From: an uncultured Nitrospirales bacterium
GTDB lineage: Bacteria; Hydrogenedentota; Hydrogenedentia; Hydrogenedentales; CAILVY01
Assembly (NCBI GenBank): GCA_964474205.1
Contig: CAYYRW010000006.1
Location: 143,772 to 207,771, forward strand
Direction of reading: 5' to 3'
DNA length: 64,000 nucleotides
The notes under the pieces are model-generated. The model was not told the DNA's origin, did no database searches, and was given only the letters and a program-made list of their open reading frames with translations. Every line of letters starts with the position of its first letter. The stretch's first letter is position 1. Positions 1,343-57,390 of the stretch are shown piece by piece. Both the position numbers and the translations under genes were made by a program.

Positions 1343-3380
1343 CGTACTGCCCCACTTCTATAGGTAGTTCGGCGGGAGGCTGATTTTCCGCCGGTGGCTT
1401 CATTTCGAGCGTGCAAAATTGCGGCCCCACGCCGTTCACCAGCCCCTCACCGATAATGACGGGTTTGTCGCCCAACACAGCGCCGGTGGTTGGGTCTTTT
1501 ACCGCTTCCGTCCGGTACACAAGGCATTTCAGGCTTTCGCGAAGCCCCTGGTTTTCTTTCAAATCACAGGTGACTTCCGGCGCGGCCCATTCCAGCACCT
1601 TGCCGCGCACACGGGGGAATTCTTGCGTCAACCGCACCCCCAGATCCTCGATCAACCGGCCCAGTTCCTTGTACGGTCCCGCCACATCCACACGCGGCGC
1701 GACCCGCACTCCCGTTTCCGTGCTGCTGCCCTCGAGCACGATCTCGATGGAGTCCTGGTCCCTCCGGATGCGCGCGGCCAGCATCACATCGGCGGGCACC
1801 AGCTTGCCCAATTGCAGCTTTCCTTTTTCCGAGGACAGCGCCGAGGAAAGCTCCTGTTCCGCAAGGATGCTTTTGAGCAAATCGCGGTCGACCAAGGTAA
1901 AACGTTTTTGCACCGTGCGAGCACCCGCCAATTCGCTCAAAATATATTCCGTATCCTGCATCGTTCCCGGATTTTTCGTTTCCGTAACATTTCCCAGAAA
2001 CGCCAATGCAAGCTTCCCTTTTGTCATCTCAATTTCCGTCGGGGAACGCAACACGGTTTTGCGCGCCTCGCCCGAGCGGCCGTTGGAATCCGAGGCCGAG
2101 GCCTGTATCGGGTTCTCTCCCTCTTCCAGCCGCACCCGGCGGCTCAGGTGGACATTCGCACGGCCGGGCACAATGGGAATCGCTTCACCGTTCAAACTGA
2201 CCTTATCAACGACGGTGGTGGTGCGCACGTCCATCGCCACGACAATCTCTTCCATGAAATATTGCTGGCCATCCTGGAGATTGTTCAACGCCACCGTGAT
2301 GGCCCCGCTGGAATCCGGCGTCACCCCCAACACCATCGACAGGCCGGATGCGATCATATTGAGCATTCGCGAACCAAAGGGAAACGGGGAAGAAACATTG
2401 CGCTGTGCCGATGCAGGACCTGGAATCTCGCCCCGGGTGATGTTGCCCAATCCGTCTTCACACTCATACATAAGCGGAGTGGTCATTTCCTGCGCTGGGA
2501 TGTCCAGTACAAACGTGGTTACCCCGTTCTCCCGGGTCAAAGCGGCTTCTTTTCCACCCACCCGGAACGCCTTCACACTGGTCCGGTCAACCGCCGCGCC
2601 CCGCAGCACGCCGGGCAAGGTCAACGGCTCATCAAAACTCAACGCGGGGCCTTCCACATCCAGTATCACCGGCACATGGGCCGCAGAAGATTTTCCAAGA
2701 AGGTCCGTGGCGGTGATCTCGATATCATTCTGCCCCGGTTTCAGCGCCACCTGTTGCCGGAACGAAATACTGGGGCCGGAAACTTTAATATCCACCGGTG
2801 CGCCGTTCACGGCAATGCCCGCCACAAAGGTGTCATCCCGGACGGTCCCGGCCACTTCCAGTTCCATGGCCGAAACCGTGTTGGCGGTTTCCTGGATTTC
2901 GATTACCGGCGGCGTGGCATCGGCCCCGCTCTTTTCCAGCAGCCGTTTGCGCGATTCGTTGAGATAATAGGCAGCGCGCGCCGAAAATCGCTGTTTCAAG
3001 CTGAGTTCGAGTTGGGCGGCACCCGCGGAATACTGGTTTTGATGATAGAGCGCGACGCCCAATTCCCGATGCGGGAAATATTCCGGCACGAAATGCAGAC
3101 CATAGGTGCGCGGCCACAGTTGATCCTTGTTCCGGCCTTTGAGCGCGCTTTCCAGATCGCGCTGCGCCTCCGGGTAAAATCCGCCTTCCAGATAGGAACG
3201 TCCGCGTTCATAATAATTCCACCACCGCCCCCGGAAGCGTCCTTCCGTCACGCCATAACGCACCCCGTCCCGCACAAACTTTTTTTCGTCCTGCCGGGAG
3301 AACACGGCGCATCCCGGCACGAAGGTGGTGAGCAGAACCGCCGCAAGACAGCAGAACACGGTATGGCGGTGAAAATTCAT
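1329..3380 (-). CDS. Lipoprotein-like secreted protein with N-terminal TPR-like region, Ig-like middle and C-terminal CsgG/LpoB-like domain
   Basis: 683-aa ORF. The signal peptide has a lipobox-like end (LLTTFVPGC). The C-terminal region reads FLGNVTETKNP...TLVDRDLLKSILAEQELSSALSSEKGKLQLGKLVPADVMLAARIRR, the CsgG/LpoB-type periplasmic module. The ATG overlaps the kinase stop (ATGA at 3377-3380). Confidence 0.75.
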   Translation of the reverse strand: MNFHRHTVFCCLAAVLLTTFVPGCAVFSRQDEKKFVRDGVRYGVTEGRFRGRWWNYYERGRSYLEGGFYPEAQRDLESALKGRNKDQLWPRTYGLHFVPEYFPHRELGVALYHQNQYSAGAAQLELSLKQRFSARAAYYLNESRKRLLEKSGADATPPVIEIQETANTVSAMELEVAGTVRDDTFVAGIAVNGAPVDIKVSGPSISFRQQVALKPGQNDIEITATDLLGKSSAAHVPVILDVEGPALSFDEPLTLPGVLRGAAVDRTSVKAFRVGGKEAALTRENGVTTFVLDIPAQEMTTPLMYECEDGLGNITRGEIPGPASAQRNVSSPFPFGSRMLNMIASGLSMVLGVTPDSSGAITVALNNLQDGQQYFMEEIVVAMDVRTTTVVDKVSLNGEAIPIVPGRANVHLSRRVRLEEGENPIQASASDSNGRSGEARKTVLRSPTEIEMTKGKLALAFLGNVTETKNPGTMQDTEYILSELAGARTVQKRFTLVDRDLLKSILAEQELSSALSSEKGKLQLGKLVPADVMLAARIRRDQDSIEIVLEGSSTETGVRVAPRVDVAGPYKELGRLIEDLGVRLTQEFPRVRGKVLEWAAPEVTCDLKENQGLRESLKCLVYRTEAVKDPTTGAVLGDKPVIIGEGLVNGVGPQFCTLEMKPPAENQPPAELPIEVGQYVVTK

Positions 3381-5830
3381 TGCGATGAACCGTCCTGCGA
3401 TAGCGGTTCCTGCACATACCAGCCGGTATCCGGGGTATTGCCCAGTTTCGCGGCATCAACGCCCGAAAGAATTACTTTCGAGGTGGAGCCGCCTGGCATA
3501 TCCACGGTTGCCAGGGCCTCTTTCATGGGCGGTGCTTCGGGATCGGGCAACACTTCCAGTTTCATTCCGGGAGTGACGCCCTGCTTTGTGCCAATGTTAA
3601 TCTCCGGGCCGTTCGCCCCCTGGTACACACGGCCCCGCACGGGATAGGCCTGTGCGACGGCGCGCCAGATGGCCCTGGCGGCATCGTCCACCACCTGCTG
3701 TGCATTTTCATGCCCGCCCAAATCCAAGGCGGGCACGGCCACCGGCACGGACGTTTCCACATCATCAATCTTAAAGGTGAGTTTCTCCAGGCCATCCACC
3801 TTGGTTATGCGGCACTGGATCACCAGGCGCGCCCCAACGATTTGGCCCAAACGCAACCGGTTGGCGCCTGAACTCAACATGCCGGAAAGCTCTTGCTCGC
3901 CGAGAATCTCATTGATCAATTCACGGTCCACCAGTTTCATGGAGGTTTCCGCGTCCAAGCGTTCGCCCAGCCACTGAGGCAGCAGGTCCAGCAGGCCCGA
4001 TTCCATCGCAAAACGGCTTTGTTTTGCTTCCACGGGCAACACGAAAAAGCTTAGGGCACGGCTGGTCCACGGATCACTTGCATTCTCCGGCGCCGACTGG
4101 CTATCCATCATCTGACGGATATGTTGCACCGATTGCCGCACTTGTTCACGCCGGGAATCATCCAAGCGGCGCGCAAGTTCCGCCGAGTAAGCCTGCGCCA
4201 CGGCGGAACCATCCGGCACCCCGCTGGCCGCAAGCTGCTCGAAGATGGTTTTGGCGTCGCTGAATTTTCCAAGGCGGTAATACGCCTGGCCGAGGGTTTG
4301 CAGTGCCTCGCCATATTGCCATTTGAATTGAAAGGCTTCTTCCTTGAGCCCCTTCAGCAGACTGGCCGTTTGTTCATATTCATTTTTCATGGCGGCGATT
4401 TGGGCGCGCAGTGAATTTAGGTACTGTGAACCGGCATTGCCCATGCCCGAAAGGACGGATTCCGCGGCTACACCGTCCTTTTCAAACGCCACGGCGGCTT
4501 CGCCTTCCGCGCGTAACAGGGGGTCCGCAATGGGCTTCAACACGGCGGCGGCCTCTTCCAGTTTTCCCTCACGCATCAAGGCCATGCCCAAGCCATACGC
4601 CACGGAAGCATCCTTGGGATTCTCCTTAAGCAATTGTTGATATTCACGCTCCGCACACTCGAGATTCTTCTTTTCCAAACAATCCCGTGCCTTCGCCAGG
4701 GCTGCTCCGGAACGTTTTCCGGGTTCCTCGACAATGCTCGCCGCACGAATAACCAACAGGATGGCGGCGGTGATCAGTAACGCGGTCCCCACCAACACCA
4801 GATACCGCCACCGTTTCTTTGCGGGCGGCGCGGGCGGCGCATTGATCGTAATGGGCGGCACCATTCCCTGACGCTCAATCGCCTGCAACGCCAAGCGCAA
4901 CCGGCGCGCAAACTCTCCCATGGTTTGGAACCGGTTTTCAGGTTTGTGGGCAATGGCCTTCTCCACAATATCGAGAAGGCCCTCCGGGAGATCAGGGCGG
5001 CGTTCCCGCAAGGGAACATGGTCACCCACCCGGATTTTCCGCAGGATTTCCCGGACCCCCGGCGCTTCAAAGGGCCGCCGTCCGCAAATCAGTTCATAGA
5101 GCGTTACCCCGAGCGAAAAAATGTCCGAACGCGCATCCAAGGGATCGCCATCGGCCTGTTCGGGAGACATATAGGGCGGAGAACCGCTGATATCGCCTTC
5201 AATGGTGAAATCAGAGCCGGAAGGCAGGCGTGCAAGCCCAAAGTCGGTGATTTTTGCCTTTTTCGTGTTGGGTTCCAACAGGATATTTGCCGGCTTGATG
5301 TCGCGGTGCATGATACCCTGCTGGTGGGCTTCGTACAAGGCTTCCGCGCATTCCGCGGTGATGCGCAAGGCATCCAACAGTGTCAACCCCTCCGGATTTT
5401 CCTCCAGAAGTTGATCCGCGTTGCCCTCGACGTATTCCAGGACGAAATAACACCGGCCTTTATGTTCGCCCCATTGAAAAATGTCCACGATGGAAGGATG
5501 CTTGCTGAGCGCCGCGATGGCTTTCGCTTCGCGCTCGAACATGGCACGGGCCTTCTCGGACATTTCATGGTTCATGAACTTAATGGCCACCTGCCGTTCC
5601 AGGGCTTCATCCCGCGCCTTGTAAACGGTTCCAAAGCCTCCCGCGCCCAGCTTGTGAAGGATGCGATAGTTGCCAATGCATTCGTTCAGCAACGCGTCGG
5701 ATACTTCGCTGATGGAAATGGAAGGCTCCGAGGCGGCCGCGCTCAATCCTTCCGGCGAATCGGAACTTTCCATATGTGAGGTCGGATCATCCGGCCTTTT
5801 CTTTGAAGAATCATTTTCCCTTTGTGACAT
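3377..5830 (-). CDS. Hanks-type Ser/Thr protein kinase: cytoplasmic kinase domain, one TM helix, periplasmic TPR region and C-terminal CsgG/LpoB-like domain
   Basis: Kinase motifs are present: LGAGGFGTVYKA (G-loop), AIK, HRDIKPANILL, DFGLARL, SPEQ. A TM helix (WRYLVLVGTALLITAAILLVI) is followed by TPR-like repeats. The C-terminal segment KLVDRELINEILGEQELSGMLSSGANRLRLGQIVGARLVIQCRI is paralogous to the C-terminus of the downstream gene. Confidence 0.9.
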   Translation of the reverse strand: MSQRENDSSKKRPDDPTSHMESSDSPEGLSAAASEPSISISEVSDALLNECIGNYRILHKLGAGGFGTVYKARDEALERQVAIKFMNHEMSEKARAMFEREAKAIAALSKHPSIVDIFQWGEHKGRCYFVLEYVEGNADQLLEENPEGLTLLDALRITAECAEALYEAHQQGIMHRDIKPANILLEPNTKKAKITDFGLARLPSGSDFTIEGDISGSPPYMSPEQADGDPLDARSDIFSLGVTLYELICGRRPFEAPGVREILRKIRVGDHVPLRERRPDLPEGLLDIVEKAIAHKPENRFQTMGEFARRLRLALQAIERQGMVPPITINAPPAPPAKKRWRYLVLVGTALLITAAILLVIRAASIVEEPGKRSGAALAKARDCLEKKNLECAEREYQQLLKENPKDASVAYGLGMALMREGKLEEAAAVLKPIADPLLRAEGEAAVAFEKDGVAAESVLSGMGNAGSQYLNSLRAQIAAMKNEYEQTASLLKGLKEEAFQFKWQYGEALQTLGQAYYRLGKFSDAKTIFEQLAASGVPDGSAVAQAYSAELARRLDDSRREQVRQSVQHIRQMMDSQSAPENASDPWTSRALSFFVLPVEAKQSRFAMESGLLDLLPQWLGERLDAETSMKLVDRELINEILGEQELSGMLSSGANRLRLGQIVGARLVIQCRITKVDGLEKLTFKIDDVETSVPVAVPALDLGGHENAQQVVDDAARAIWRAVAQAYPVRGRVYQGANGPEINIGTKQGVTPGMKLEVLPDPEAPPMKEALATVDMPGGSTSKVILSGVDAAKLGNTPDTGWYVQEPLSQDGSSQ

Positions 5831-5901: not shown

Positions 5902-8900
5902 CTACCGTTTACCCGTATTTTTCCAGCCCAGTAAAATCATTAGACTCAAACAACCGATGAAAAGGTCACCCAGGAGCCGCTGCCAATCCTTCAAGGTGAA
6001 ATCAGTCTCATTGCATTGGCAACTGAAGGGCGGTTGAACTTCACCCTCGGTTTCGCCCTCCAGTGCGCCCTCCTCCGCGCCTTCGATAATGCCTTCGTCA
6101 TCACCTTCCATGATGCCTTCGAGAACATCCCCCTCGGATGAGCCTTCGGTTTGGCCTTCAACGAGCATGCCCTCTTCTTCGCCTTCGCCTTCAGCTTGGC
6201 CTTCAACGAGCATGCCCTCTTCTTCGCCTTCAGATTGGCCTTCAACGAGCATGCCTTCCGCTTCACCTTCGGTTTGGCCTTCAACGAGCATGCCCTCTTC
6301 TTCGCCTTCGCCCTCGGTCACCCCCTCGCCCTCTTCCGCTGAACCTTCGGAGGGCATGCCTTCCACCGAACCACCCGTAACCGTTACGGAGCCGTTGACG
6401 GCCTGTACGGGAATTTGCGTGCCGTTGAGCTCAGGCGCGATCAACTGGAGGGGAGAGGATTTTCCGGCGGCATCGGCGGCGATTTGGAAGTGAAGCACGG
6501 CCAGGGTGCCCGAACCGCTCAGGGCATAGGCGGAAGATGCGGATATCAGCACTTCACCGGCGAAAGTGTTTAGGTTGGGGGCTCCCCACGAGGAGGTGAG
6601 GCTGCCGTTCTCAAAACTCGCATAGGTGAGCACGGTTTCATCAAAGGTAATGTCCAGGAAATACGCGCGCACATCGGTGGCGTCATCGAGTGCCACGGGT
6701 ACCTCGATTTGTGTTCCAGGCTCCCCGGACAGCGCGGGCAGGGTGAGTTGGCGTTCGCCTATATTCAGCGCATTCTTTGCACTACTTTTGCAGTCCGTAT
6801 CCGGGCCGAACTCGTTGCCATCGCAGTCCGCGGGCAATTGCGCCGTAATGCCCACCTTCCATTGGAGGATGTCCGAGCCGTCCAATTCATTCAGGGCGCC
6901 ATCACCGTTCACATCGGCAGCCTCGGGATAGGCCGGCCGGACCACGCCGGGATACGCCGTGAACTCGGTAATGAGACGCACGCGCCACTGGCCAATGGCC
7001 GAGGCATCCAGCGTGCCCACGCGCGCATCGCCGGTCAACTCACCCCAGCGGTAGCTGCCGCCCGAAGAAGGTTCGAGGGCAATGTCGCGTTCCGTGGCGG
7101 CTCCCGCGCTGACCAGCACATATTCGCTGGCGTCCTGATAGCCGTCCTTGGAGGCCATCAGCATGTACGTGCCTTCCGCCACATTTGGCAGGAAGTATTC
7201 GCCTCTCGCGGTGGTACTCATTGAAGTCCCATTCGGGCTAATCGTCACTTCCGCGCCTTCCACCGGCGTACCGGTGGCGAGGTCCTTGATCACGCCGGTA
7301 ATATAGCCGGGGAGGGCGGGATTATGATTGTCCACGATGAAGTGCCGCACCATGGAACCCGTGGGGCTGGCGCCATACACATCCACGGGGATCACACGCC
7401 AATAATAGGTTTGACCGTCTTGCAGGCCGCTCATGGATACCGCCGTTACCGAGATCCCTTCTTTGAACCTTAATCCGGTGCTAAAGGAGTCATCCTCGGC
7501 AATCTCCAGGCGGTAGGTCAACGGATCGCCATCCGGGTCGGTTACGGAAGTCCACGCGAAGAAACTTGTGCTGTACACGCTCATCCCGTCACCGGGATAA
7601 TTCAGCGTGGTGAGGGTGGGCGGACGATTGGTGGCGGATTGCCGGTAGATGGTCGTCATCAGGAAGGAACTGGTTTCCTTGGTAACGCCGTCCTGCACAT
7701 AGTAGAACACATTGTAAGTGCCCGGCGCGTCAAAAGTGGTTCCGAAGGTTTCCCATCGGAAATACCCGGTGTCCAAATTGGAGATGGCGGTCTCATAGTC
7801 GAACGAGGGCAGATCAATGTATTTCTGCGAATCTTCATTCGCCGGGTCCACCGTGGTGGAACCCGCATATTCGGGCGTTTTCACCTCGATCCACGCGGTA
7901 TGGCCCGTCGCCGGGATATCCGTGGCTTTTGCGAACAACTGCCCCACGGGATCCGCCGGACCCAGCATCAGGGTTTGTGTGGAGGTGATCCACCCGACGG
8001 AACCGGTGGCGTTCACGCCATAACCCAGCACCATTTCATGGGCCAGCGAACCATCATTGCCGGAGGCAAACGCCAGGTGTCTCGCTTCGCTTCCTGTGCC
8101 ATCCCCGTTGTCATCCAATAGCGGATGTTGTTTGAACAGGGCGGAAGCTCCATTGCTTTTGGTGGCGGTGTAGGTCAGGGTCTTGTCCGTGGCGCGTTCG
8201 AAGGATTCTTTTAAGGTTTTGCCTTCCCGCGCATTGCGGAAAAATTCGGTGGTGAAGGCTTCGCCGTCCCGCACCAAGCCCAGTTTTTCCAGCACGCCGC
8301 GATGGGACACTTCATTTTTCGAGGTGCTGGTAATCACCACGCGATTCGCCCCAGAGACCGCCTCGACGAAGCTTCCCGAATAACACGAACCCATAACAAG
8401 CGCCACCTTCTGGTTGCGCGACGCCGTGTTCAGGCTGGCTTGCAGGAAGTTCAAATACCCCGCCAATTCCGACGGCGTGATGTACCGGGTCTCATTGTAA
8501 CTGCCGGAATATACATAGAATTTACTCGGGCCGCCATGATCGATCAGCACGATATACAAGGGGGCGGGGGAGGTGTTCATTTGCGTTACGGCCCAATTCT
8601 GTATGGCCCCCGTCACATCCGCCTGGGACGGCGTGCGATCATCCACAAAAATATCCGCCGCCGGTTGCGCCGGGCCTTCGCGGAGGTAGTAAATGTCTTC
8701 GTGGGCAAAACCCCGGTCGCGGAATGCACGATAGACATAATCGCCGGTTTTGCGATGTTCGTCCATTCCTTCGCCGGTGGCGTCCAATTTTCCCACCACA
8801 ACGATGGCGTAGCCGGCCTTGTCTTTGACCGTCAAGCGCACGGATTCGGGCTTGTCGTAACCTTCCGACGTGGTGGCCAGCAGATTTTGACTGCCCTCAA

Positions 8901-11900
8901 ATTCCACCAGGAACTGCCACGTGCCCGGACTGCTAAAAGTGATGCCTGCCGCTGTGAATGCTGAGGCGGGAAACACAACCTTGCCGCCCGCGCCGGTGGT
9001 TCCCGCCACGGGCCCCGCGGAAGAGGCATCGGGTTTCTTCATCCACAAATTCACCGTTTGCCCTGTCACCAAAGTCTGCAATTGTGCAGGAAGCGGCCCG
9101 CTCAATACCGCCTCCGCTTGCAGGTCGGAAAACCCCATCGGGACCGAGGAGGCATTAAGGCTCAGGGTAAGTGTGGGCTGGGCCTTCTTCACGGCAAAGG
9201 GTGCCCAATTGCTTATCGCGTTTTGGTAATACACATCGCCCGGCCAGGACGCCTGAATCAGCCAGGGGGAGCGTCCCTCGGAGGCTTCCGTGGGATAAAA
9301 CAGGCGTGAATATGCGGTTCCGCCGATGGCTACTGCTTCCGGGAAATCGGTGGCATGTACCCCGGAGGGCGAGTTCGTGGTAAAGCTGACAATGGTTCCA
9401 ACGGGGCTTTTTCCCACAATACTGCCCGAAACCGTCAAGGTCTGCCCCAAGGTGATTTCCGAGGCGCTCAGGATACAGGAGATCGAAGAGGGTTCAAGGG
9501 TAATTTCTCCGTCCTGAATAATAGTGCATTCCGGCGAGGTGGCGGGAGTGCCATCATCCGCCCCATCGTTCGGAGTCACTACGCAATACCACAAATCACC
9601 CACGGTAGTGTCGTCCGCGAACACCCGGCTGCGTGTCGTCTGGTTAAACGCGCTGGTGAATGTGCTGTACGACCCGCCCGAAGGCTTGCGCCACCATGCA
9701 AATGCATACGTAACGGGGTCTCCATCCGCATCCTGGCTGGCGGTCTGAATGGAGCATTCCAGGGTGGTGCTGTCATTCAATTGTGCGGGAAATGTGAGTA
9801 CGGGTGCGCCCGGCGGGGTGTTTACAATCGTCACCGAATCCTCGCCCGGATCGGAATAGTCGCCGCCGTAGTATCCTCGCACGATGCAGGTCCAGGTATC
9901 CCCACGGCTCGTTTCAGAGGCATTTAATGTGTCCACAAGACCAGATTGCGGGCCATGTACAATCGGGGTTCCACCATTGCTCCAGGAGAATTCATACTGC
10001 ACGGAATACGGCGCGCTGGGGGTTGTCACTGTACATACAAGATCATCCGAACTTGTCGGAAAATCCGGAGTGATTTCTACCACAGGCGCTGTCATTGGCC
10101 CCGCTTCGGATGAACGGGTAATTCTGAAACCTATGAAGTAACGATGATCGCCAGGTGTTGTGTGGTTTCGAAAAGCGGAACGGCACGAGTCCCAACTACT
10201 AGGCCAACTTCCACCACGCATGGTACGATCTGATCCGAATCCAGGCCCAATGGGATCGATTTGACTGCCTGTTCCATAACTATCATACCAGTCATGACAC
10301 CATTCATTGACGCCTCCACTCATATCGTAACAACCCGCTGGACTGAAACTGTCAACAGTCGTAATACTGCCGTTTGGACTAATATTCACTCCATTAAACC
10401 ACCCCGCCGGGGAAGTATATGGTTCGGATACCATGCCCATGGGATTAACGTGATTTGGATTGGCATCGTAATAGTTACAGCGGGCCTTACCCGTGAGTGT
10501 GTCGCTTTGGAATCCATAAATCCAATGTGTCGATCCCGAGGTATTCCAACCGGCGGCATATTCCCATTCGGCTTCTGTTGGTAATCGATAACCTCCAGAT
10601 GCAACTGAAAGCGCCCATGTGGTTAGGGTGTAGCAAGGGGTTAACCCCTCCATTTCACTCAACCAGTTACAGAAACATACTGCTCCAAACCAAGAAACCC
10701 AGACCACAGGATGATTCACCATCGAGTATCCATCGCGTGTTTTTGGCGCGAATGTGCCATTCACGAATTGTACATCGCTTGTGCTTTCCGACACCGCTGC
10801 AACCAGTTGCAGACTCCCTTCATCGACATATACATCGCCGCTGGTATAGGCCGCGCCCGTTGAATTCTTGAGATACCCCCGCGCATTGGCCCAATTAAGG
10901 ACTGTGGCGAACTGGCCGTTGGTGATCTCGAACTTGCCAATTTTATAGGGACTCAGCGTCACCTCATGACGCGGCAATTCGTCCGCTCCACCATAGGCGC
11001 CATCGTCCCCATCATCCCGCCGGCCCATCGTGAAGGTTCCCCCAGCCACATCCACCATCGGTATGTGAATAGGCGACCGCGCTACGCGGAAACCCGTGTA
11101 ATTATCGCGGTAGTTCTGTGGCAACCCGCCGGGGCGGTAGGCTGTACGGCTATTGCTTTTAGCGTTTCCCCAAGACCCGCCGCGCATTTCCCTTCCTGTA
11201 CCCGAGACCGGCCCTGTGGGGTCCGTCATGGACCCGCCGCTGTAATACGTGTCAAGGTGTTTATCGTGACACCATTCCCACACATTCCCTGACATGTCAT
11301 AACATCCTGCTGGCGAAGGTGAATCCACCGTTGCGATACTTCCATTGGGACTGACATGAACACCATCAAACCAACCAGCGGGGGAGGTGTAGGGGAGTTC
11401 GGTGAGACCAAGAGGATTTACACCCGAAGGACTCCCATCCCCATAACTACAATGGGCTTTGCCTGTTAGGGTATCCGTCATCATCCCGTAGATCCAGTGC
11501 TTACCGGCATCGGAATCCCATGCGGCCGCCCGTTCCCATTCCGCCTCTGTTGGCAACCGGTATCCATCAGGGTAGGGAGTAATGATCTCCCATGTTTTTA
11601 GATCATAACAGGGTGTCAGCCCCTGGGCCTCGCTTAACCAGTTGCAAAACGCCACGGCGCCATGCCAGGTCACCGTAGTGACAGGATGGTGCTCCATGGA
11701 GTAGGTATCGCGGGTTTTCCATCCGAATGCGCCGTTTGTATAGGTGATCGGGCAATAAGCATGAGTTAAAAATAGGATTTGCTGCCGGTCACCTTCATCC
11801 ACATACACATCACCACTGGAATAGTAGCTGCCATCCGAGTTTTTCAAGTACCCGTGCCCTTTGGCCCAGTTCAGCACCGCCGCAAACTGCCCGTTCGTCA

Positions 11901-14295
11901 CTTCAAACTTACCAATGTTATAGGCGCTCAAGGTCACCTCATGCCGTGGCAACTCTGTGGTCTGGCCATAGGTCCCATCATCCCCATCATCCCGCCGCCC
12001 CATCGTGAAGGTGCCGGAGGAGACGGGAACATTAGGCATCAAGTCCAATGTAGTGACGAAAATGTCATAATCTGTACCCGTAATTCCACCAAGGTTTTCA
12101 TTGGCGGAGTAAATCGCAACCCAGTGCCCCCGGGCATCTGAAGCGATGGAAGCGGTACGATACGGTCCCGTTACCGCATCCTGATTGAGAGATTGGGCCA
12201 AGTACCATGTCGTCCCGCCGTCTTCAGAACGCGACCAATGCAGATCGGCATTCTCATGATTCCATACAACGACATAGTTGCCGGCCTCATCATAATCGAT
12301 GGACAAAGGATAATAGTCATCGGTATCTATTGAATCTCTCTGATTAAGCTGTTTAGGAGTACTCCATGTGATCCCATTGTCCAGGGATTGAGCCATAGCC
12401 ACATCAATGTTCGCATTCCAACGTTGGCTACTCGACCATAGGACGAACCAACGGCCATTACCATCGGTCACAATATTTTGCTGGCTGCCAAATCTATCAT
12501 AGGCTATATCCGTTGCGCCATCGGTATTGACATGCCCCGGTGCGGACCACGTTATTCCATTGTCAACTGACCGCGATGACAGGACATCGTAGTCACTTCC
12601 GGCTATTCCCTCTGGACTGTTAGGGGTTGTCCAAACAACAACCCAAGTCCCTTTTCTATCCGTTGTGATACTGGGAGGATCATCCTCCTCGGTATCCGTT
12701 GATGCCCAAGGACAGAGCGCGGCTGGGCTGGACCATGTACTGCCATTGTCATCGGATCGTGAATACGCGATATCCGTATCCGTCCCCCAGCGGCGGCAAT
12801 GAAACACAACAACCCAACGCCCATTGCCATTTGTGGAGATTTGTGCACTTCCATCATACATGCCACCTGTGGTAATCGCTGATTTGGTACTCCATGTCGC
12901 CCCATTGTCAGTCGATCGTGAAAAAATCACGCCATTATTCCCGTCAGGGACTGCTATCCACCCGCTCCAAACAACAATCCATGTTCCTTTTCCATCTGTG
13001 GCAATCTTCGGATCTCTATGATCCCGATAGTCTGTAGGAGTTCCTCCCGCATTGATAAGAACGGGCGTTGACCATGTATTTCCGCCATCGCTCGAACGAG
13101 CCGCTAAAATGTTATGTTGTGTGTAGCCATTACTGTCGTAGAAATCATCAGCACAAGCCCAAACAGCCACCCAGTTGCCGTTGTGGTCGCTTTCAATATC
13201 GACCTCACGGTCCATAATATCTGAAGCGTCCAAAGCCGCGCGCGCATTTAGTGATCTCTGATGCGACCATTCAAGGCTTGACGACGCAAACTCATATGCG
13301 CCCATATCGGGTCCGCCGCCCCACGTGCGGAGCGTGCCTTCGATGTCTGTGAGAGGTGCGCCGGTGGCGGTGCCAGTATCGATACACGGCGACCCGGCGC
13401 ACAAGCGGAGATCTGTCGTGCTCGCAAAACGCGGATTCTCATTTTTGTTGCCCGTGCCGGTGTATCCGCCTTGCACATCGGAGTAGGTGATTGCCGTACT
13501 GCCGCCGGTATCGACGATCTCTGGAGTAAGACTGTTCCAAAGAATACAGTTTGTCGCCGTAGTGTTAGCGGCATTGTGGTTATGTATTGCGCTGCCGTCA
13601 ACGCTACTGTTGCCGTAAAAAGAGCAGTTCATGATTTGAGGCCAGGCGGCAGGCTGATTGTTAAACAACCCGCCGCCTGAATTTGCAGTGTTATTCAGAA
13701 AGACACAGTTCACCAATGCCGGAGAGCAGGCATAGTTATACATGCCACCGCCCACCGCCGCGGCATTACCTTTGAAGCAGCAATTAGTCACGATGCAGGA
13801 GGCAAGATTGTTATATATTCCTCCGCCTCTGTCATTTTCTCCGCCACCGTTCGCGTTCCCGCCGGTGACGGTGAATCCGTCAATACCCGAATCCTCCGCT
13901 CCGAGGACAACGTGGTAGGCGGCGGAACCCGCACGGGCAGTACTGCCGTCGATAATGGTGGTATGGGCACTCAAATCCCGCTCCGAGCGTTGCGTTTCGT
14001 TACCGGCAAATCCGCCATAGAGCGAAACGGTTGATTTAAGTTCAAGTGCGCCGCTCGCATGCGGACGCGTTTCGCTGTAGGTTCCTTCCGCGACCCAGAC
14101 CTCGCCGCCCCCGGCCGCGGAGGCGGCATTGACCGCCGGTTGGATCGTTTTGAAGGCGGTTGCCCACGATGTGCCGTCTTCCGTGCCGGTGTTGTCCTTG
14201 TCCACGTACCAAGTGGCGGCATTGGCATTCACACCGAGAAAAGCCGCCAACAGCAGAATAGCACCCGTGGCTAAATTACGTGCAAGCGTTAACAT
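5902..14295 (-). CDS. Giant secreted mosaic protein with nine modules: beta-helix, BNR propeller, two FGE-sulfatase domains, Ig/FN3, clan-CD peptidase, dockerin, cohesin, acidic repeats and a C-terminal TM anchor
   Basis: The uninterrupted frame runs 5902..14364 (2820 codons). The likely start is ATG at 14295 (MLTLARNLATGAILLLAAFLGVNANA signal peptide, AAGGAT Shine-Dalgarno 7 nt upstream). The six-frame track's 14364 start adds 23 non-signal residues. Modules, in track aa numbering: beta-helix ~50-360 (GGNANGGGENDRGGGIYNN-type turns); BNR/Asp-box propeller ~385-770 (seven SxDxGxTW boxes, e.g. SRSTDNGATWS, SRSDDNGSTWS, SRSVDNGITWS); FGE-sulfatase 1 at 778-1098 and FGE-sulfatase 2 at 1104-1418 (RLPTEAEWE, GNVWEWCHD, RGGSW); clan-CD peptidase ~1850-2080 (LIDHGG...MGSCYSG); carboxypeptidase-regulatory-like domain ~2355-2430; dockerin ~2440-2505 (DVNGDGALNELDGSDILQW); cohesin-like ~2535-2665; acidic EGMLVEGQ repeats 2667-2777; TM anchor LFIGCLSLMILLGWKNTGKR. 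Confidence 0.85.
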   Translation of the reverse strand: MLTLARNLATGAILLLAAFLGVNANAATWYVDKDNTGTEDGTSWATAFKTIQPAVNAASAAGGGEVWVAEGTYSETRPHASGALELKSTVSLYGGFAGNETQRSERDLSAHTTIIDGSTARAGSAAYHVVLGAEDSGIDGFTVTGGNANGGGENDRGGGIYNNLASCIVTNCCFKGNAAAVGGGMYNYACSPALVNCVFLNNTANSGGGLFNNQPAAWPQIMNCSFYGNSSVDGSAIHNHNAANTTATNCILWNSLTPEIVDTGGSTAITYSDVQGGYTGTGNKNENPRFASTTDLRLCAGSPCIDTGTATGAPLTDIEGTLRTWGGGPDMGAYEFASSSLEWSHQRSLNARAALDASDIMDREVDIESDHNGNWVAVWACADDFYDSNGYTQHNILAARSSDGGNTWSTPVLINAGGTPTDYRDHRDPKIATDGKGTWIVVWSGWIAVPDGNNGVIFSRSTDNGATWSTKSAITTGGMYDGSAQISTNGNGRWVVVFHCRRWGTDTDIAYSRSDDNGSTWSSPAALCPWASTDTEEDDPPSITTDRKGTWVVVWTTPNSPEGIAGSDYDVLSSRSVDNGITWSAPGHVNTDGATDIAYDRFGSQQNIVTDGNGRWFVLWSSSQRWNANIDVAMAQSLDNGITWSTPKQLNQRDSIDTDDYYPLSIDYDEAGNYVVVWNHENADLHWSRSEDGGTTWYLAQSLNQDAVTGPYRTASIASDARGHWVAIYSANENLGGITGTDYDIFVTTLDLMPNVPVSSGTFTMGRRDDGDDGTYGQTTELPRHEVTLSAYNIGKFEVTNGQFAAVLNWAKGHGYLKNSDGSYYSSGDVYVDEGDRQQILFLTHAYCPITYTNGAFGWKTRDTYSMEHHPVTTVTWHGAVAFCNWLSEAQGLTPCYDLKTWEIITPYPDGYRLPTEAEWERAAAWDSDAGKHWIYGMMTDTLTGKAHCSYGDGSPSGVNPLGLTELPYTSPAGWFDGVHVSPNGSIATVDSPSPAGCYDMSGNVWEWCHDKHLDTYYSGGSMTDPTGPVSGTGREMRGGSWGNAKSNSRTAYRPGGLPQNYRDNYTGFRVARSPIHIPMVDVAGGTFTMGRRDDGDDGAYGGADELPRHEVTLSPYKIGKFEITNGQFATVLNWANARGYLKNSTGAAYTSGDVYVDEGSLQLVAAVSESTSDVQFVNGTFAPKTRDGYSMVNHPVVWVSWFGAVCFCNWLSEMEGLTPCYTLTTWALSVASGGYRLPTEAEWEYAAGWNTSGSTHWIYGFQSDTLTGKARCNYYDANPNHVNPMGMVSEPYTSPAGWFNGVNISPNGSITTVDSFSPAGCYDMSGGVNEWCHDWYDSYGTGSQIDPIGPGFGSDRTMRGGSWPSSWDSCRSAFRNHTTPGDHRYFIGFRITRSSEAGPMTAPVVEITPDFPTSSDDLVCTVTTPSAPYSVQYEFSWSNGGTPIVHGPQSGLVDTLNASETSRGDTWTCIVRGYYGGDYSDPGEDSVTIVNTPPGAPVLTFPAQLNDSTTLECSIQTASQDADGDPVTYAFAWWRKPSGGSYSTFTSAFNQTTRSRVFADDTTVGDLWYCVVTPNDGADDGTPATSPECTIIQDGEITLEPSSISCILSASEITLGQTLTVSGSIVGKSPVGTIVSFTTNSPSGVHATDFPEAVAIGGTAYSRLFYPTEASEGRSPWLIQASWPGDVYYQNAISNWAPFAVKKAQPTLTLSLNASSVPMGFSDLQAEAVLSGPLPAQLQTLVTGQTVNLWMKKPDASSAGPVAGTTGAGGKVVFPASAFTAAGITFSSPGTWQFLVEFEGSQNLLATTSEGYDKPESVRLTVKDKAGYAIVVVGKLDATGEGMDEHRKTGDYVYRAFRDRGFAHEDIYYLREGPAQPAADIFVDDRTPSQADVTGAIQNWAVTQMNTSPAPLYIVLIDHGGPSKFYVYSGSYNETRYITPSELAGYLNFLQASLNTASRNQKVALVMGSCYSGSFVEAVSGANRVVITSTSKNEVSHRGVLEKLGLVRDGEAFTTEFFRNAREGKTLKESFERATDKTLTYTATKSNGASALFKQHPLLDDNGDGTGSEARHLAFASGNDGSLAHEMVLGYGVNATGSVGWITSTQTLMLGPADPVGQLFAKATDIPATGHTAWIEVKTPEYAGSTTVDPANEDSQKYIDLPSFDYETAISNLDTGYFRWETFGTTFDAPGTYNVFYYVQDGVTKETSSFLMTTIYRQSATNRPPTLTTLNYPGDGMSVYSTSFFAWTSVTDPDGDPLTYRLEIAEDDSFSTGLRFKEGISVTAVSMSGLQDGQTYYWRVIPVDVYGASPTGSMVRHFIVDNHNPALPGYITGVIKDLATGTPVEGAEVTISPNGTSMSTTARGEYFLPNVAEGTYMLMASKDGYQDASEYVLVSAGAATERDIALEPSSGGSYRWGELTGDARVGTLDASAIGQWRVRLITEFTAYPGVVRPAYPEAADVNGDGALNELDGSDILQWKVGITAQLPADCDGNEFGPDTDCKSSAKNALNIGERQLTLPALSGEPGTQIEVPVALDDATDVRAYFLDITFDETVLTYASFENGSLTSSWGAPNLNTFAGEVLISASSAYALSGSGTLAVLHFQIAADAAGKSSPLQLIAPELNGTQIPVQAVNGSVTVTGGSVEGMPSEGSAEEGEGVTEGEGEEEGMLVEGQTEGEAEGMLVEGQSEGEEEGMLVEGQAEGEGEEEGMLVEGQTEGSSEGDVLEGIMEGDDEGIIEGAEEGALEGETEGEVQPPFSCQCNETDFTLKDWQRLLGDLFIGCLSLMILLGWKNTGKR
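6033..6366 (-). repeat. In-frame imperfect tandem DNA repeats (~42-48 nt units) inside the giant CDS, encoding an acidic (E/G-rich) EGMLVEGQxEGExEE tail
   Basis: The unit ggccttcaacgagcatgccctcttcttcgccttc recurs four or more times on the plus strand (6130-6330). Translated on the minus strand it gives GMLVEGQTEGEAEGMLVEGQSEGEEEGMLVEGQAEGEGEEEGMLVEGQTEG. Confidence 0.7.
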
Positions 14296-14356
14296 ACCCT
14301 TATCCTTTAATCGTTGTCGTTGGTTTTGGGCTGCATCCCATAACCAAAGACTACTT

Positions 14357-15346
14357 TTATTCATTGCATACCGTCCTATCGTCTTCCCCCGCCCTCCGAG
14401 CTATGGAGGACAAGTTGCGGGAATGACGGAAATTTCGCAAACTCATGCAAATGAGCAAGACAGCAAGAATGATCCACACGGGCGGTCCCAGCGGCATGGG
14501 ATGTTCCCTGACAATTCGCACCAGCATGGATTCATAGACGACGGGCAACGCGCCGTCATTCAGTTCAGCACTGAAAATTTCGATGTAGGTGGTTTCGTCG
14601 AGAGGCGCGTCCTCGCGCACACGAAATCGCAAATAGATCACGGTGGCCGAGCCGGAAAATGGCTGGGTGCTATATGCGCCGACGGTGATGCGTCCATTGA
14701 TGGCGGCATTGACCGTGGGCGCGCCCCAGCCCGCAGGCAAGGCGCCGGGGGTGGTTCCGAGGAAATCCAGGAGGTTGGGCGCGTAGGAAAGGGAGAACAC
14801 CAATCCGAGCACGCCCCCGGCATCACGTAATTCTATTGGCAGGGTGAATTCATCGCCGGGCAGGAGGTCCAGGGATACCGGCATCCCCAACACCGCAATG
14901 TCCGCCACGGTCACCGTGCCGTTCTGGGCTGTGGCGACGATAGCCCCGTCGTTGAGTTCCACCTTTCGGAAAAATACCGTGGAAACGGCGCCCAACAGTG
15001 CGGTGGATTTTACCCGGAATTGAATCTGTACAAGGCTGCCCGCGCCCGCGATGGGAACGGTACTGTAACTTGCCACGCTGCATCGTCCGGCACTGGAATT
15101 GAGGATCGGGGCGGGCCAACTGGCCGTGAGCAGGCCGTTCTGGGCGTTTATCACCTCAAAATCAGTGGAATACCCCAGTTCAAAGTAATACCCGAGCACC
15201 CCGGATACGGCGGTAACGGTGATGGGCAGGGTAAACGTCTCTCCCGGCGCCGCCACGATGGAATCCGGTACACTCACACTGACGGTTGCTCCGGCCAATG
15301 AAGCAACCACCCACATGCCTAATGCCAACAACCCACTTGCCCGCAC
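14357..15346 (-). CDS. Membrane-anchored protein with two cohesin-like domains (scaffoldin/anchor-like)
   Basis: 329 aa with a signal peptide (MRASGLLALGMWVVASLAGA). Two repeats resemble the cohesin module of the giant protein (VSVPDSIVAAPGETFTLPITVTAVSGVLGYYFELGYS... and MPVSLDLLPGDEFTLPIELRDAGGVLGLVFSLSY...). A C-terminal TM segment (PPVWIILAVLLICMSL) is followed by basic residues. It sits 61 nt upstream of the giant gene. Confidence 0.65.
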   Translation of the reverse strand: MRASGLLALGMWVVASLAGATVSVSVPDSIVAAPGETFTLPITVTAVSGVLGYYFELGYSTDFEVINAQNGLLTASWPAPILNSSAGRCSVASYSTVPIAGAGSLVQIQFRVKSTALLGAVSTVFFRKVELNDGAIVATAQNGTVTVADIAVLGMPVSLDLLPGDEFTLPIELRDAGGVLGLVFSLSYAPNLLDFLGTTPGALPAGWGAPTVNAAINGRITVGAYSTQPFSGSATVIYLRFRVREDAPLDETTYIEIFSAELNDGALPVVYESMLVRIVREHPMPLGPPVWIILAVLLICMSLRNFRHSRNLSSIARRAGEDDRTVCNE

Positions 15347-15873: not shown

Positions 15874-16054
15874 CGAATGTTCTCCTTGGTTTCCGATGTC
15901 TTCAGGTCGTTATCCATGCCAACCATGTATACCACACCATACCCCACTCGTTACCGTGGAAACAAGTATTTTTCCGCGCCCCACGCCTTCGCGCCCTCAA
16001 TTATCCGCCATTCGAGTATGTCCTGAATGACACGTGCGTTAACAACGAATCCAA

Positions 16055-16210
16055 AACCAAGCGAAAAACCCGGGACTGACGCAAGCGGGACCGCCCCTGT
16101 GCAAAACCTGTATCCGGCAACGTATTTCAAACATGGGCGGGTGAGACGGGGCTGTCCCTGCTTTTTCGCGTACTTCAGTACCACACGCGTATCTACGTGC
16201 CATTCGGGGC
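16055..16210. repeat. Copy A of a ~150-nt intergenic repeated element with long terminal stem (gcgaaaaacccgggac ... gtccctgctttttcgc)
   Basis: About 80% identical to 43352..43500 over roughly 150 nt. The outer arms are inverted repeats with compensatory differences between the two copies. Confidence 0.55.
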
Positions 16211-37394: not shown

Positions 37395-37652
37395 GACAGC
37401 CTCCCATTCCTTCACAGGCGAACATGTTCCAGGCGGAAGTGCCGCCGAGTGCGCCCTGTTTTGCCTGCCCCGGAATCTCCTCGGTTCCCGGCGCATTCGA
37501 TCACTGCAATTTTCATATTTTGCGCAGTATCGGCGCAAGAACCGAAAACCACTGAAATATATTGCATTCCCGGAAAACTTATGGAAAAATACGGTTGAAC
37601 CGTGTAAAGAGCAAAAAATTGGCAGAAATATCAAACCTTGGGAGTGGTTGCC

Positions 37653-43256: not shown

Positions 43257-43351
43257 TTAGATGGGGCGGACGGTTATTTTTTATGGCGTCACGTAGAGAC
43301 ATCGGTTCTTAAAAAACGATCCTAATGGCGCCTACGTAACAATGAATATAA

Positions 43352-43500
43352 GACGAAGCGAAAAATGGGGACTGACGCAAGCGAGGCCGCCCAAGGGCCA
43401 ACCCCATGTCCTGCAACGAATCTCAAGGATGGGCGGGCGAGACGTGTCTGTCCCTGTTTTTTCGCGTACCTCAGTGCCGCGCGCTTATCTAAGTGCCATT
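43352..43500. repeat. Copy B of the ~150-nt hairpin-flanked intergenic repeat (see 16055..16210)
   Basis: gcgaaaaatggggactgacgcaagcgaggccgccc...gggcgggcgagacgtgtctgtccctgttttttcgcgtacctcagtgccgcgcgcttatctaagtgccatt aligns base-for-base with copy A. Confidence 0.55.
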
Positions 43501-52772: not shown

Positions 52773-53314
52773 GCCTCGATGCGAGACAAAAAAACTTCAT
52801 AGGCTACCTGCTGAATCTTGCAAAAGAAGGGCAGGAAGACCGGGGTGCGCTCGCTGACCTGCGGAGCGGCCTGGGAAAGAAACCTGGCGAGATGTCCCAC
52901 GTTCACAAGTATGTTGTGCCCTATTTGCCAGAGGACAAATACAAAGATCGTTGGTATTACCTAATTGCGACACTTTTTGGGCTATACCCAAAGCGTCGCA
53001 AGGGGTATAGCCTGGGAGCGGCATTTTGCCCGCTAAAACAAAACAGTGACAGCATGGAGGCACGTTTTGTTGCCTTGCTTAACGCACACCCAGATGATCT
53101 TGGTGATCATTTACGGCATGTAATTAGTCTTCTTAAAGCAAAGGGGCAACCATTGGATTGGTTCCTGTTGTTTAGTGATTTGCTTCACTGGGACCACCAG
53201 GATGGATATGTCCAATTGGGTTGGGCACGGGATTTTTATAAAGGTTTCGAAAAACCAAGTGAAAACAAAAACAACATAAATGACGAAGACTTACAAAAAC
53301 AGGAGAAGGAATAA
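52769..53314 (+). CDS. cse2: Cse2/CasB (Cas11e) Cascade small subunit
   Basis: 181 aa, basic and alpha-helical. Assigned by position between cse1 and cas7e, with 4-nt overlap. Confidence 0.8.
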   Translation: MSLDARQKNFIGYLLNLAKEGQEDRGALADLRSGLGKKPGEMSHVHKYVVPYLPEDKYKDRWYYLIATLFGLYPKRRKGYSLGAAFCPLKQNSDSMEARFVALLNAHPDDLGDHLRHVISLLKAKGQPLDWFLLFSDLLHWDHQDGYVQLGWARDFYKGFEKPSENKNNINDEDLQKQEKE

Positions 53315-53318
53315 AGCC

Positions 53319-54728: not shown

Positions 54729-55351
54729 GTGAAATCCATACCCTTCTTATACGGCTTGAAGGGCCTATGCAATCATGGGGCTATCGCAGCCGTTTTGACT
54801 GCCGCGACACCGCACTTGAGCCGACCCGTAGCGGAATGATCGGCTTGATCTGTGCCGCCATGGGGATTGCCCGAGGTGAGGATATTTCTCGATTCGATGC
54901 GATTCGCATGGGTGTCCGCGTAGACCAACAAGGTAGGCCCGAATGCGACTACCAAACTGCACTTGACGTAATTAAGGCAGATGGAAAAGGAAAAGACACC
55001 GTCCAGTCTTGGCGTGATTACCTTGCCGACGCTTCATTCACAGTTGGTTTGGAGTCGAGGGATCTTAACCTGTTGTGCGAAATAGCAGGGGCTCTACAGT
55101 CGCCCATTTGGCCGTTATTTCTGGGACGAAAAGCATTCCCGCTTTCGGTTCCTCCTATCTGTGAAAAGGACCCTATCAAGCCCGGCGTTTTAGAGGACCA
55201 TCTTTTGAGCGGAACAACAAATGATCGTGTTGTTTTAGAAGCAAGTGATGGTGAAAGAAGTCAAAATGACTGGCCTTTGTGTTTTGGTGAGCGTCACTTT
55301 AAGCCACGCGCTCTTCACACGGCGTTTGACAAGAAAGGAGACCATGAATGA
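54725..55351 (+). CDS. cas5e: Cas5e/CasD
   Basis: MSEIHTLLIRLEGPMQSWGYRSRFDCRDTALEPTRSGMIGLICAAMG is the Cas5e N-terminal signature (LRLxGPMQSWG). Confidence 0.9.
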   Translation: MSEIHTLLIRLEGPMQSWGYRSRFDCRDTALEPTRSGMIGLICAAMGIARGEDISRFDAIRMGVRVDQQGRPECDYQTALDVIKADGKGKDTVQSWRDYLADASFTVGLESRDLNLLCEIAGALQSPIWPLFLGRKAFPLSVPPICEKDPIKPGVLEDHLLSGTTNDRVVLEASDGERSQNDWPLCFGERHFKPRALHTAFDKKGDHE

Positions 55352-56136: not shown

Positions 56137-56137
56137 T

Positions 56138-57371: not shown

Positions 57372-57390
57372 TTACCAATGAAATCAATGT

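Follow-up and report, generated by a model that had tools for sequence, protein, structure and literature searches.

Tandem FGE-sulfatase-fold domains in a giant mosaic protein are probably ligand-binding modules and not formylglycine-generating enzymes

The analysed stretch of DNA, a window of 64 kb from a likely Hydrogenedentota bacterium, carries on its minus strand a giant ORF of 2820 aa (positions 5902..14364), taken from the ORF list and its translation. From the N-terminus, the encoded protein is composed of a probable signal peptide, an N-terminal region of about 400 aa, a BNR propeller and two FGE-like domains, followed by an Ig-like region, a peptidase C13-like domain, a CarboxypepD_reg domain, a weak dockerin, a cohesin, Glu/Gly-rich repeats and a C-terminal hydrophobic anchor. 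Pfam matches were obtained for BNR_2 (aa 410-549), Peptidase_C13 (aa 1936-2065, 27.8 bits), CarboxypepD_reg (aa 2355-2431) and Cohesin (aa 2539-2662), while Dockerin_1 stayed below threshold (17.7 bits versus a cut-off of 22.9). No Pfam family matched aa 1-400, for which the sole profile match was NCBIfam choice_anch_Q (aa 316-359); by eye only, this region has a beta-helix-like appearance. The C13-like peptidase region, searched by sequence against the PDB, gave no match. The signal-peptide-like N-terminus and the types of domain present suggest that the protein is extracellular or exposed on the surface.

The gene upstream on the same strand (14357..15346; Pfam Cohesin, E 1.1e-21, two stretches) encodes a two-cohesin protein and shares 8 nt with the start of the giant ORF. 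The two genes are probably co-transcribed, and the two-cohesin protein is a possible assembly partner of the giant protein. The downstream gene, also on the minus strand (3377..5830), encodes a Ser/Thr protein kinase with TPR repeats (Pfam Pkinase, E 2.9e-49, and TPR families). An Rfam scan of the 64-kb window gave no match. The giant protein, searched by exact look-up, is not on record in public assemblies, and the scan of a genome collection returned neither a relative nor an orthologue. Synteny was evaluated on 80 loci of the nearest genomes, selected by aconitase (75-80% identity) and mostly belonging to Candidatus Hydrogenedentes/Hydrogenedentota MAGs; no syntenic copy of the giant, cohesin, GDSL and kinase proteins was found in them by tblastn.

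The first-pass annotation had reported, within the giant protein, two consecutive segments with the same ordered motifs, and had assigned them to the FGE-sulfatase domain. All the motifs are found in the translation, and the coordinates were right within one base (10111-12033, minus strand). Copy A (aa 778-1098, 11071..12033) and copy B (aa 1104-1418, 10111..11055), both on the minus strand, are separated by a linker of five residues, IHIPM (aa 1099-1103, 11056..11070, minus strand). The domain assignment is confirmed by PF03781, which matches copy A with an E-value of 1.2e-43 (150.1 bits, model positions 6-255 of 255) and copy B with an E-value of 8.4e-43 (147.3 bits, positions 8-254 of 255); both scores are far above the gathering score of 23.3, and nearly the full model is covered in each case.

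End-to-end alignment of the two copies gives 192 identical residues out of 317 (61%; BLASTP E 1e-130), a similarity far beyond chance. The proposed diverged tandem duplication of about 960 bp is thus well visible in the protein and needs to be qualified for the DNA, where overall nucleotide identity is 58% and the repeat search detects only two patches, of 164 nt at 73% and of 50 nt at 90%. Codon third positions are identical in 34% of the cases. The dN/dS between the copies, proposed at first pass as a measure, is not computable, since the proportion of synonymous differences (pS 0.88, saturated) exceeds the Jukes-Cantor limit; the values obtained are a pN of 0.29, a pN/pS of about 0.33 and a dN of 0.36. 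The duplication is ancient. Both copies are under purifying selection and both have been maintained, as follows from the low pN relative to pS and from the family-conserved positions, of which copy A keeps 76 out of 77 and copy B 74 out of 77. By this sequence comparison, A and B belong to a subfamily of their own and are conserved in it to an equal degree. An origin of the pair from collapsed reads or another assembly artefact, which had been considered earlier, is excluded by the 58% DNA identity and the saturated synonymous sites; the two copies also lie in one continuous reading frame, each under purifying selection, and we regard such an artefact as extremely improbable.

The residues of the FGE active site were located by HMMER alignments and by unrestricted MAFFT alignment. 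In copy A, the segment RGGSWGNAKSNSRTAYRPGGLPQNYRDNYTGFR (11086..11184, minus strand; aligned by HMMER to the FGEs of T. curvata and human) is the equivalent of the FGE active-site loop and of the variable region of TvpA (Treponema denticola variable protein 1, PDB 2Y3C), and Asn and Ser replace both catalytic cysteines. In copy B, the corresponding segment RGGSWPSSWDSCRSAFRNHTTPGDHRYFIGFR (10123..10218, minus strand; aligned by HMMER to TvpA and to the FGEs of T. curvata and S. coelicolor, and by MAFFT) has Ser for the first catalytic Cys and retains one Cys, as in TvpA. By both methods, copy A has Asn and copy B has Ser in place of the first catalytic Cys (C269 in T. curvata, C336 in human FGE); at the second (C274 and C341, respectively), B has Cys and A either Ser or a gap. 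Human His337 is replaced by Ala in A and by Ser in B, and Tyr340 by Asn in A and by Ser in B. Human Trp299 corresponds to Trp in A (GNVWEW) and to Asn in B (GGVNEW), while Ser333, the serine of RGGS, is kept in both. According to MAFFT, the loop of both copies has a 3-residue deletion relative to FGEs.

In FGE both cysteines are required as Cu(I) ligands (PMC6676471), and mutations of C336, C341, S333, H337 and Y340 alter its activity (PMC4505483). Judged by these residues, neither copy is a formylglycine-generating enzyme, because the catalytic Cu(I) Cys pair is missing. That one or both copies might be an active copper-dependent FGE, responsible for the extracellular maturation of sulfatases or of other CxPxR substrates, could be proposed from the significant PF03781 match and from the residues that remain, namely the GGS serine, shared by the two copies, the tryptophan of GNVWEW, present only in A, and the second Cys, present only in B. 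This is highly improbable, given a Cys pair absent in A and incomplete in B, the loss of the His337 and Tyr340 equivalents, the shortened loop and a closer similarity of both sequences to the non-enzymatic TvpA than to FGEs; in addition, no sulfatase gene was found by Pfam among the larger, apparently real ORFs scanned in the 64-kb window. The catalytic reading of the first-pass annotation thus gives way, with most active-site residues lost and the lectin-fold TvpA as the nearest solved relative, which is in essence the outcome that this annotation had named as its own refutation. Its suggestion that one copy is catalytically dead does not hold either, since both are non-FGE and the Cys pair is complete in neither, so that they do not form a pair of a live and a dead enzyme.

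The similarity to aerobic Cu-dependent FGEs (human SUMF1 and the enzymes of S. coelicolor and T. curvata) concerns the Pfam family, the fold and the core motifs HPV, RLPTEAEWE, GNVWEW and RGGS; A and B differ from them by long insertions and by being tandem modules embedded in a mosaic protein. The Asp/Asn-Gly-x-x-x-Glu pattern around GNVWEW, which in human FGE we take to be a structural Ca2+ site, is also kept in the MAFFT alignment.

The AF2 model of the A and B pair has a mean pLDDT of 93.2 and a pTM of 0.84, with pLDDT values of about 90-98 for copy A, and the predicted structure shows the FGE-sulfatase fold for both copies. Comparison with the PDB by Foldseek placed TvpA first (E 1.1e-17), followed by FGEs, CalU17, PvdO, CarF, PorK, EgtB and pFGE; the probability was 1.00 for TvpA, FGEs and PvdO, with target-normalised TM values of 0.62-0.71. 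TvpA is also the best PDB sequence match of both copies (E 4e-17 and 4.5e-19), although identity is only about 25%. It shares with them the 3-residue deletion relative to FGEs and the C-terminal order of RGGSW, a 6-residue loop, a single Cys, kept in B and not in A, and GFR. TvpA is without FGE activity, and is thought to bind its ligand through a C-terminal variable region of 45 residues (PMC5758913; PMC6328139). A and B differ from TvpA in being internal modules of a 2820-aa protein, with subfamily-specific insertions of roughly 60 aa. The FGE fold without catalytic cysteines is also found in pFGE/SUMF2 (PDB 1Y4J; fold match E 8.5e-13), an ER protein of eukaryotes with a single domain, which is a weaker match than TvpA or FGEs and offers no evidence of a shared function.

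Relatives of A and B were found to form a very large TvpA-like subfamily of PF03781, with 1,635 clusters at 50% identity for E≤1e-30 and 42,265 for E≤1e-10, occurring mostly in mosaic extracellular proteins of Sumerlaeota and Hydrogenedentota. These 'SUMF1/EgtB/PvdO family' proteins (e.g. P0001, P0004, P0024, P0121-P0129) share the same motifs and 45-66% identity over the full domain, and are the actual family of copies A and B. As in the giant protein, the domain is frequently repeated in tandem, often in 2-4 copies within large extracellular mosaic proteins, and fused to dockerin, PASTA, InlB B-repeat, PKD, CARDB, LamG, TIG, Ig-like, C25 and C39-like peptidase domains. A portable extracellular module fits this pattern. 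The context, described as unusual in the first place, is thus a routine one for the family; none of the Sumerlaeota and Hydrogenedentota relatives has the whole architecture of the giant protein, and the exact combination of BNR propeller, C13 peptidase and FGE-like domains was not found in other homologues.

Conservation within the family is distributed unevenly. It reaches 90% or more in 77 columns, among which are acidic and His motifs, and the strongly conserved polar motifs of the subfamily are GRRDDGDD, ELPxH, HWIYG and SDTLTG. The loop could be parsed in 104 family domains; a Cys stands at the first catalytic position in only 2 of them, and the single later Cys, missing from copy A, is kept in 84. 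Column entropy, calculated on 137 family domains, is highest over the six positions that follow RGGSW and over the segment leading up to GFR, which together are the equivalent of the FGE active-site loop and of the TvpA variable region; the core of the fold is nearly invariant. [quoted passage not shown]

Taken with the fold and the loss of the catalytic residues, this pattern makes it probable that A and B are non-catalytic ligand-binding modules of the TvpA-like subfamily. The surface corresponding to the FGE active-site groove and to the binding face of DGR proteins would be the putative hypervariable surface of both copies, each of which probably binds a different ligand, either a glycan or a protein; the pair would help the giant mosaic protein, secreted or cell-anchored, to attach to a substrate or partner. 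We infer the binding function from the analogy to TvpA and further proteins of the lectin fold; the difference in specificity is likewise an inference. The idea of a binding module, limited at first pass to one dead copy, would in this way extend to both as their most likely role.

The same conservation data may be read differently. Relatives carry in public databases the label 'SUMF1/EgtB/PvdO family nonheme iron enzyme', and the conserved polar motifs and single Cys of the subfamily might make up a site for catalysis or for a metal that has nothing to do with FGE chemistry. In that case A and B would be enzymes of a different chemistry, using the subfamily's own conserved residues, in the manner of PvdO, CalU17 and ToxD, which have the FGE fold and act in biosynthetic pathways. 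The 77 conserved columns, the frequency of the Cys and the presence of FGE-fold proteins with non-FGE roles among the structural matches speak for this possibility; nevertheless we consider it unlikely. The most variable positions fall in what would be the active site, which is unusual for a family of enzymes with a fixed reaction, the conserved Cys is missing from copy A, and fusion, in several tandem copies, to domains of the adhesion type is a usual trait of binding modules. A DinB-type iron-binding domain is absent from the Pfam and NCBIfam matches of the giant protein, in which the BNR propeller precedes the FGE-like pair, and the NCBIfam equivalog scores are all far under their cut-offs: calculated on the whole protein, SenA gives 110 bits versus 420, EgtB 100 versus 360 and OvoA 62 versus 400, and PvdO gives 74 versus 500.

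The top NCBIfam match is GldK, at 126.5 bits for the whole protein versus a cut-off of 350, with GldJ at 54 versus 458. PorK/GldK and GldJ are FGE-fold lipoproteins of the T9SS and of gliding, and illustrate a non-enzymatic use of the fold; PorK is a significant match of A and B by sequence, and its structures are significant matches by fold. Together with the pTM of the pair, which suggests a fixed arrangement of A and B, these matches raise the possibility that the two copies are structural scaffold or spacer units without a ligand of their own, like the PorK/GldK proteins of the T9SS ring. The low GldK score, the absence in the giant protein of a lipoprotein signal and of a T9SS context, and the combination of 77 near-invariant positions with variation in the canonical binding loops of the lectin fold, unexpected of a passive spacer, make this role unlikely.

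[quoted passage not shown] With these precedents, and with hypervariable family columns that coincide with the TvpA variable region, the C-terminal loops of A and B might be variable regions of a DGR located elsewhere in the genome. We hold this to be very unlikely. A sliding comparison of either 135-nt C-terminal segment with both strands of the 64-kb window gave a best non-self match of 44% identity, and the repeat search of the window found only the A and B pair, so that nothing resembling a template repeat is present in it. No reverse transcriptase of the RVT families was detected by Pfam among the larger, apparently real ORFs scanned in the window, and the gene is also absent from two homologue loci that were inspected. 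The two candidate variable regions, moreover, diverge too far for a single template repeat to have served both. A and B have the C-terminal RGGSW...C...GFR segment that marks the FGE subtype of the lectin fold, as seen in the alignment to 2Y3C and in the top fold match, while the template repeat and DGR reverse transcriptase that would mark a DGR variable protein were not found within the 64-kb window.

Most likely, the pair is an ordinary addition to a very common kind of module. A bolder proposal, to which we give little credence, is that the subfamily, expanded in Hydrogenedentota and Sumerlaeota, consists of undescribed surface recognition modules, with a binding face diversified through duplication of domains and genes or, in certain genomes, through remote DGRs. 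If so, A and B would give the peptidase and propeller protein two target specificities, and would be the hard-wired counterpart of DGR variable proteins in a cohesin-dockerin surface assembly. The subfamily is an extensive and so far unstudied reservoir of lectin-fold modules, presumably carried on the cell surface by members of little-known phyla, and its putative variable face coincides in position with the DGR variable region.

PF03781 matches are routinely taken as FGE in estimates of the sulfatase-maturation potential of MAGs, including those of Hydrogenedentes (e.g. PMC9723792). The very abundant branch of PF03781 described here is without the catalytic Cys pair, and its members should not be counted as FGE.

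The domain pair is carried by a single ORF of 2820 aa (5902-14364, minus strand), encoding a giant predicted surface protein. Positions 10110-12033 of the window correspond to aa 778-1418 of this ORF, where two full-length matches to the Pfam FGE-sulfatase profile (PF03781) were found: copy A, aa 778-1098 (nt 11071-12033, minus strand; E 1.2e-43), and copy B, aa 1104-1418 (nt 10111-11055, minus strand; E 8.4e-43), separated by a linker of 5 residues. The copies align end to end by BLASTP, with 61% amino acid identity (E 1e-130). These matches confirm the tandem domains proposed in the first-pass annotation; a codon-level comparison, giving 58% nucleotide identity overall, also bears out their origin by a diverged duplication.

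Identity between A and B is 67%, 73% and 34% at the first, second and third codon positions, respectively. The dN/dS test suggested earlier could be completed only in part: pN (0.29) and dN (0.36) were obtained, while dS and a formal dN/dS are not computable because pS, at 0.88, is saturated. Merely two short patches of the duplication are still detectable by a DNA repeat search. The duplication is therefore ancient, purifying selection has acted on both copies, and an assembly artefact, which had been considered as a possible source, is excluded. Each copy resembles single-domain homologues of other organisms (up to 66% identity) about as closely as it does its partner (62%).

FGE catalysis relies on Cu(I) held by two cysteines, C269/C274 in T. 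curvata and C336/C341 in human FGE (PMC6676471), and mutations of the human enzyme at C336, C341, S333, H337 and Y340 alter its activity (PMC4505483). The corresponding residues were mapped by using HMMER alignments to the T. curvata, S. coelicolor and human FGEs, together with a MAFFT alignment. S333 is Ser in both copies; C336, H337 and Y340 correspond to Asn, Ala and Asn in copy A, and to Ser at all three positions in copy B; W299 is Trp in copy A (GNVWEW) and Asn in copy B (GGVNEW). At C341, copy A has Ser (or a gap) and copy B its single Cys, an equivalence which depends on the alignment, because, relative to FGEs, both copies lack three residues of the active-site loop. Both catalytic cysteines are thus missing in A, while B lacks the first and keeps one. 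Among the 104 homologous domains whose loop could be parsed, the first catalytic position is occupied by Cys in 2 and a single later Cys is present in 84; the pattern belongs to the subfamily.

Judged by these residues, copies A and B are predicted not to be FGEs; with the Cu(I)-ligating pair missing in one and incomplete in the other, a true FGE is extremely improbable. The idea of one live and one dead copy had to be abandoned, as neither has the pair and, of 77 columns conserved at ≥90% in 135 homologous domains, copy A retains 76 and copy B 74; neither copy is a degenerate remnant. None of the NCBIfam equivalog cut-offs is approached by the giant protein (scores versus cut-offs: GldK, 126 vs 350; SenA, 110 vs 420; EgtB, 100 vs 360; PvdO, 74 vs 500; OvoA, 62 vs 400), no DinB-type iron domain is present among its Pfam/NCBIfam matches, and no sulfatase gene turned up in the 64-kb window when its larger, seemingly genuine ORFs were scanned with Pfam.

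The closest PDB sequence for both copies is TvpA, the variable protein of a diversity-generating retroelement (DGR) in Treponema denticola (2Y3C; E 4e-17 and 4.5e-19), ranking ahead of FGEs, PorK, PvdO and EgtB. A confident AlphaFold2 model of the A-B pair (mean pLDDT 93.2, pTM 0.84), compared with the PDB by using Foldseek, also gave TvpA as the top match (E 1.1e-17), closely followed by FGEs, CalU17, PvdO, CarF, PorK, EgtB and pFGE, with identities of about 17-27% throughout. The copies share with TvpA the layout RGGSW, six-residue loop, Cys and GFR, and, in the MAFFT alignment, the same three-residue deletion relative to FGEs. TvpA itself shows no FGE activity; it is thought to bind ligands via a C-terminal 45-residue variable region (PMC5758913; PMC6328139).

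Because of this likeness, a DGR was sought. A repeat search of the window revealed no DNA repeats over the domain region besides the A/B pair; when either C-terminal 135-nt segment was matched against the window, the best hit other than itself had 44% identity, which is noise; and the larger ORFs of the window that look genuine, scanned with Pfam, gave no RVT-family reverse transcriptase. That the copies are targets of a remote DGR, beyond the 64 kb, is very unlikely: nothing supports it, the two candidate variable regions are too unlike to have a common template, and the reverse transcriptase gene is missing from both homologue loci inspected.

In 137 domains, column entropy has its minima in the fold core (FTMG, ELPxH, HPV, FCNWLSE, GYRLPTEAEWE, HWIYG, YTSPVGWF, YDMSGNVxEWC, RGG) and its maxima at two sites, the six residues after RGGSW and the stretch of about 12 that separates the conserved R-x-A-x-R from GFR. 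The peaks fall on the loop that forms the active site in FGEs and on the counterpart of the TvpA variable region, and A and B diverge most in the same segment (33-40% identity, versus 77-87% elsewhere). Such a pattern would fit a binding module with paralogue-dependent specificity, and would not fit an enzyme family performing one fixed reaction. An enzymatic activity of some other, non-FGE chemistry is unlikely, as the entropy maxima fall at its would-be active site; a role as structural scaffold is likewise doubtful. Non-catalytic ligand recognition is probably the function of both copies, and caution is advisable in scoring PF03781 matches as FGEs in metagenome studies.

In a word-index search, 7,878 of the 8,000 scored candidate proteins reached E≤1e-5. 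The few named homologues, mainly from Candidatus Sumerlaeota and some from Hydrogenedentes/Hydrogenedentota, are labelled 'SUMF1/EgtB/PvdO family nonheme iron enzyme' or 'formylglycine-generating enzyme family protein'. An exhaustive search of 50%-identity representatives yielded 115,402 proteins at E≤1e-3, 42,265 at E≤1e-10 and 1,635 at E≤1e-30. At least two full domains are present in 16 of the best 120 proteins, and some top-ranking representatives, 1,300-2,600 aa long, carry 3-4. Fusion partners include Dockerin_1, Flg_new_2 (InlB B-repeat), PASTA, PKD, CARDB, TIG, Laminin_G_3, FG-GAP, Peptidase_C25 and C39-like peptidases, and a DGR survey lists a target in which three FGE-sulfatase domains stand in tandem (PMC5758913). 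For the subfamily, occurrence as tandem copies within large extracellular mosaic proteins is therefore normal, and A and B are ordinary members of this very large, TvpA-like, Cys-pair-less lectin-fold group. Of the unusual context claimed at first, only the combination of BNR propeller, C13-like peptidase and cohesin proved specific; no orthologue of the whole giant protein was found by public-assembly look-up, a genome-collection scan and tblastn against 80 loci.

The giant protein starts with a signal-peptide-like N-terminus, followed by a region where a choice-of-anchor-Q domain is the sole profile match; BNR propeller, C13-like, CarboxypepD_reg and cohesin modules are also present, along with a sub-threshold dockerin. 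The C13-like (legumain-like, clan CD) region (aa ~1880-2140; 7945-8727, minus strand) is a weak match (27.8 bits) with no sequence relative in PDB; the dyad motifs, His-Gly (IDHGG) and Cys (GSCYSGS), can still be made out by eye, so this may be an active peptidase. The C-terminus (5902-6320, minus strand) contains Glu/Gly-rich degenerate repeats (EGMLVEGQxEGExE), which are also DNA repeats; a segment containing Cys comes next, then a hydrophobic helix and a basic tail. This end of the protein looks like a membrane anchor or sorting signal. Similar EGE-rich linkers separate the FGE-like domains of two homologues, P0008 and P0009. Upstream, a two-cohesin protein gene (14357-15346, minus strand) overlaps the giant ORF start by 8 nt, which, with the protein's own cohesin and sub-threshold dockerin, is a hint that a non-Firmicute may have a cellulosome-like surface assembly. 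A Ser/Thr kinase with TPR repeats is encoded downstream in the same orientation. The nearest matches of the window's aconitase gene, 75-80% identical, are mostly Candidatus Hydrogenedentes/Hydrogenedentota MAGs, pointing to this phylum as the likely source.

A second giant surface-protein ORF (37638-43256, plus strand; 1872 aa) contains LRRs, nine InlB-type B-repeats (Flg_new_2), two PASTA domains and internal DNA repeats of about 915 nt; in other genomes, homologues carry these same accessory domains fused to the FGE-like domain. A complete type I-E CRISPR-Cas locus occupies 48455-59900, with cas3 (48455-51145), cse1 (51129-52772), cas7 (53280-54728), cas5 (54725-55351), cas6e (55348-56136) and cas1 (56108-57118); after these genes comes an array in which GTTTTCCCCACGCGTGTGGGGATGAACCG is repeated about 40 times at 61-nt spacing. 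The GC content of the cas block, about 0.48 versus 0.55-0.59 in the flanks, suggests horizontal acquisition. Directly after the array, a ~62-nt unit (GGGGGAAAGGACGGAATTTGCCACAAGAGAGCCCAAAGAGCACAGAGTGTTT.CCGTGCC) is repeated four times in tandem (59910-60165; copies 79-87% identical); it bears no relation to the CRISPR repeat. Finally, two same-strand copies of a ~165-nt intergenic sequence without Rfam match, with an identity of about 80-87%, lie at 16040-16205, between the cohesin and GDSL-lipase genes, and at 43336-43500, where the neighbours are the second giant surface gene and an MBOAT gene; candidate identities are small RNA, regulatory element or miniature mobile element.
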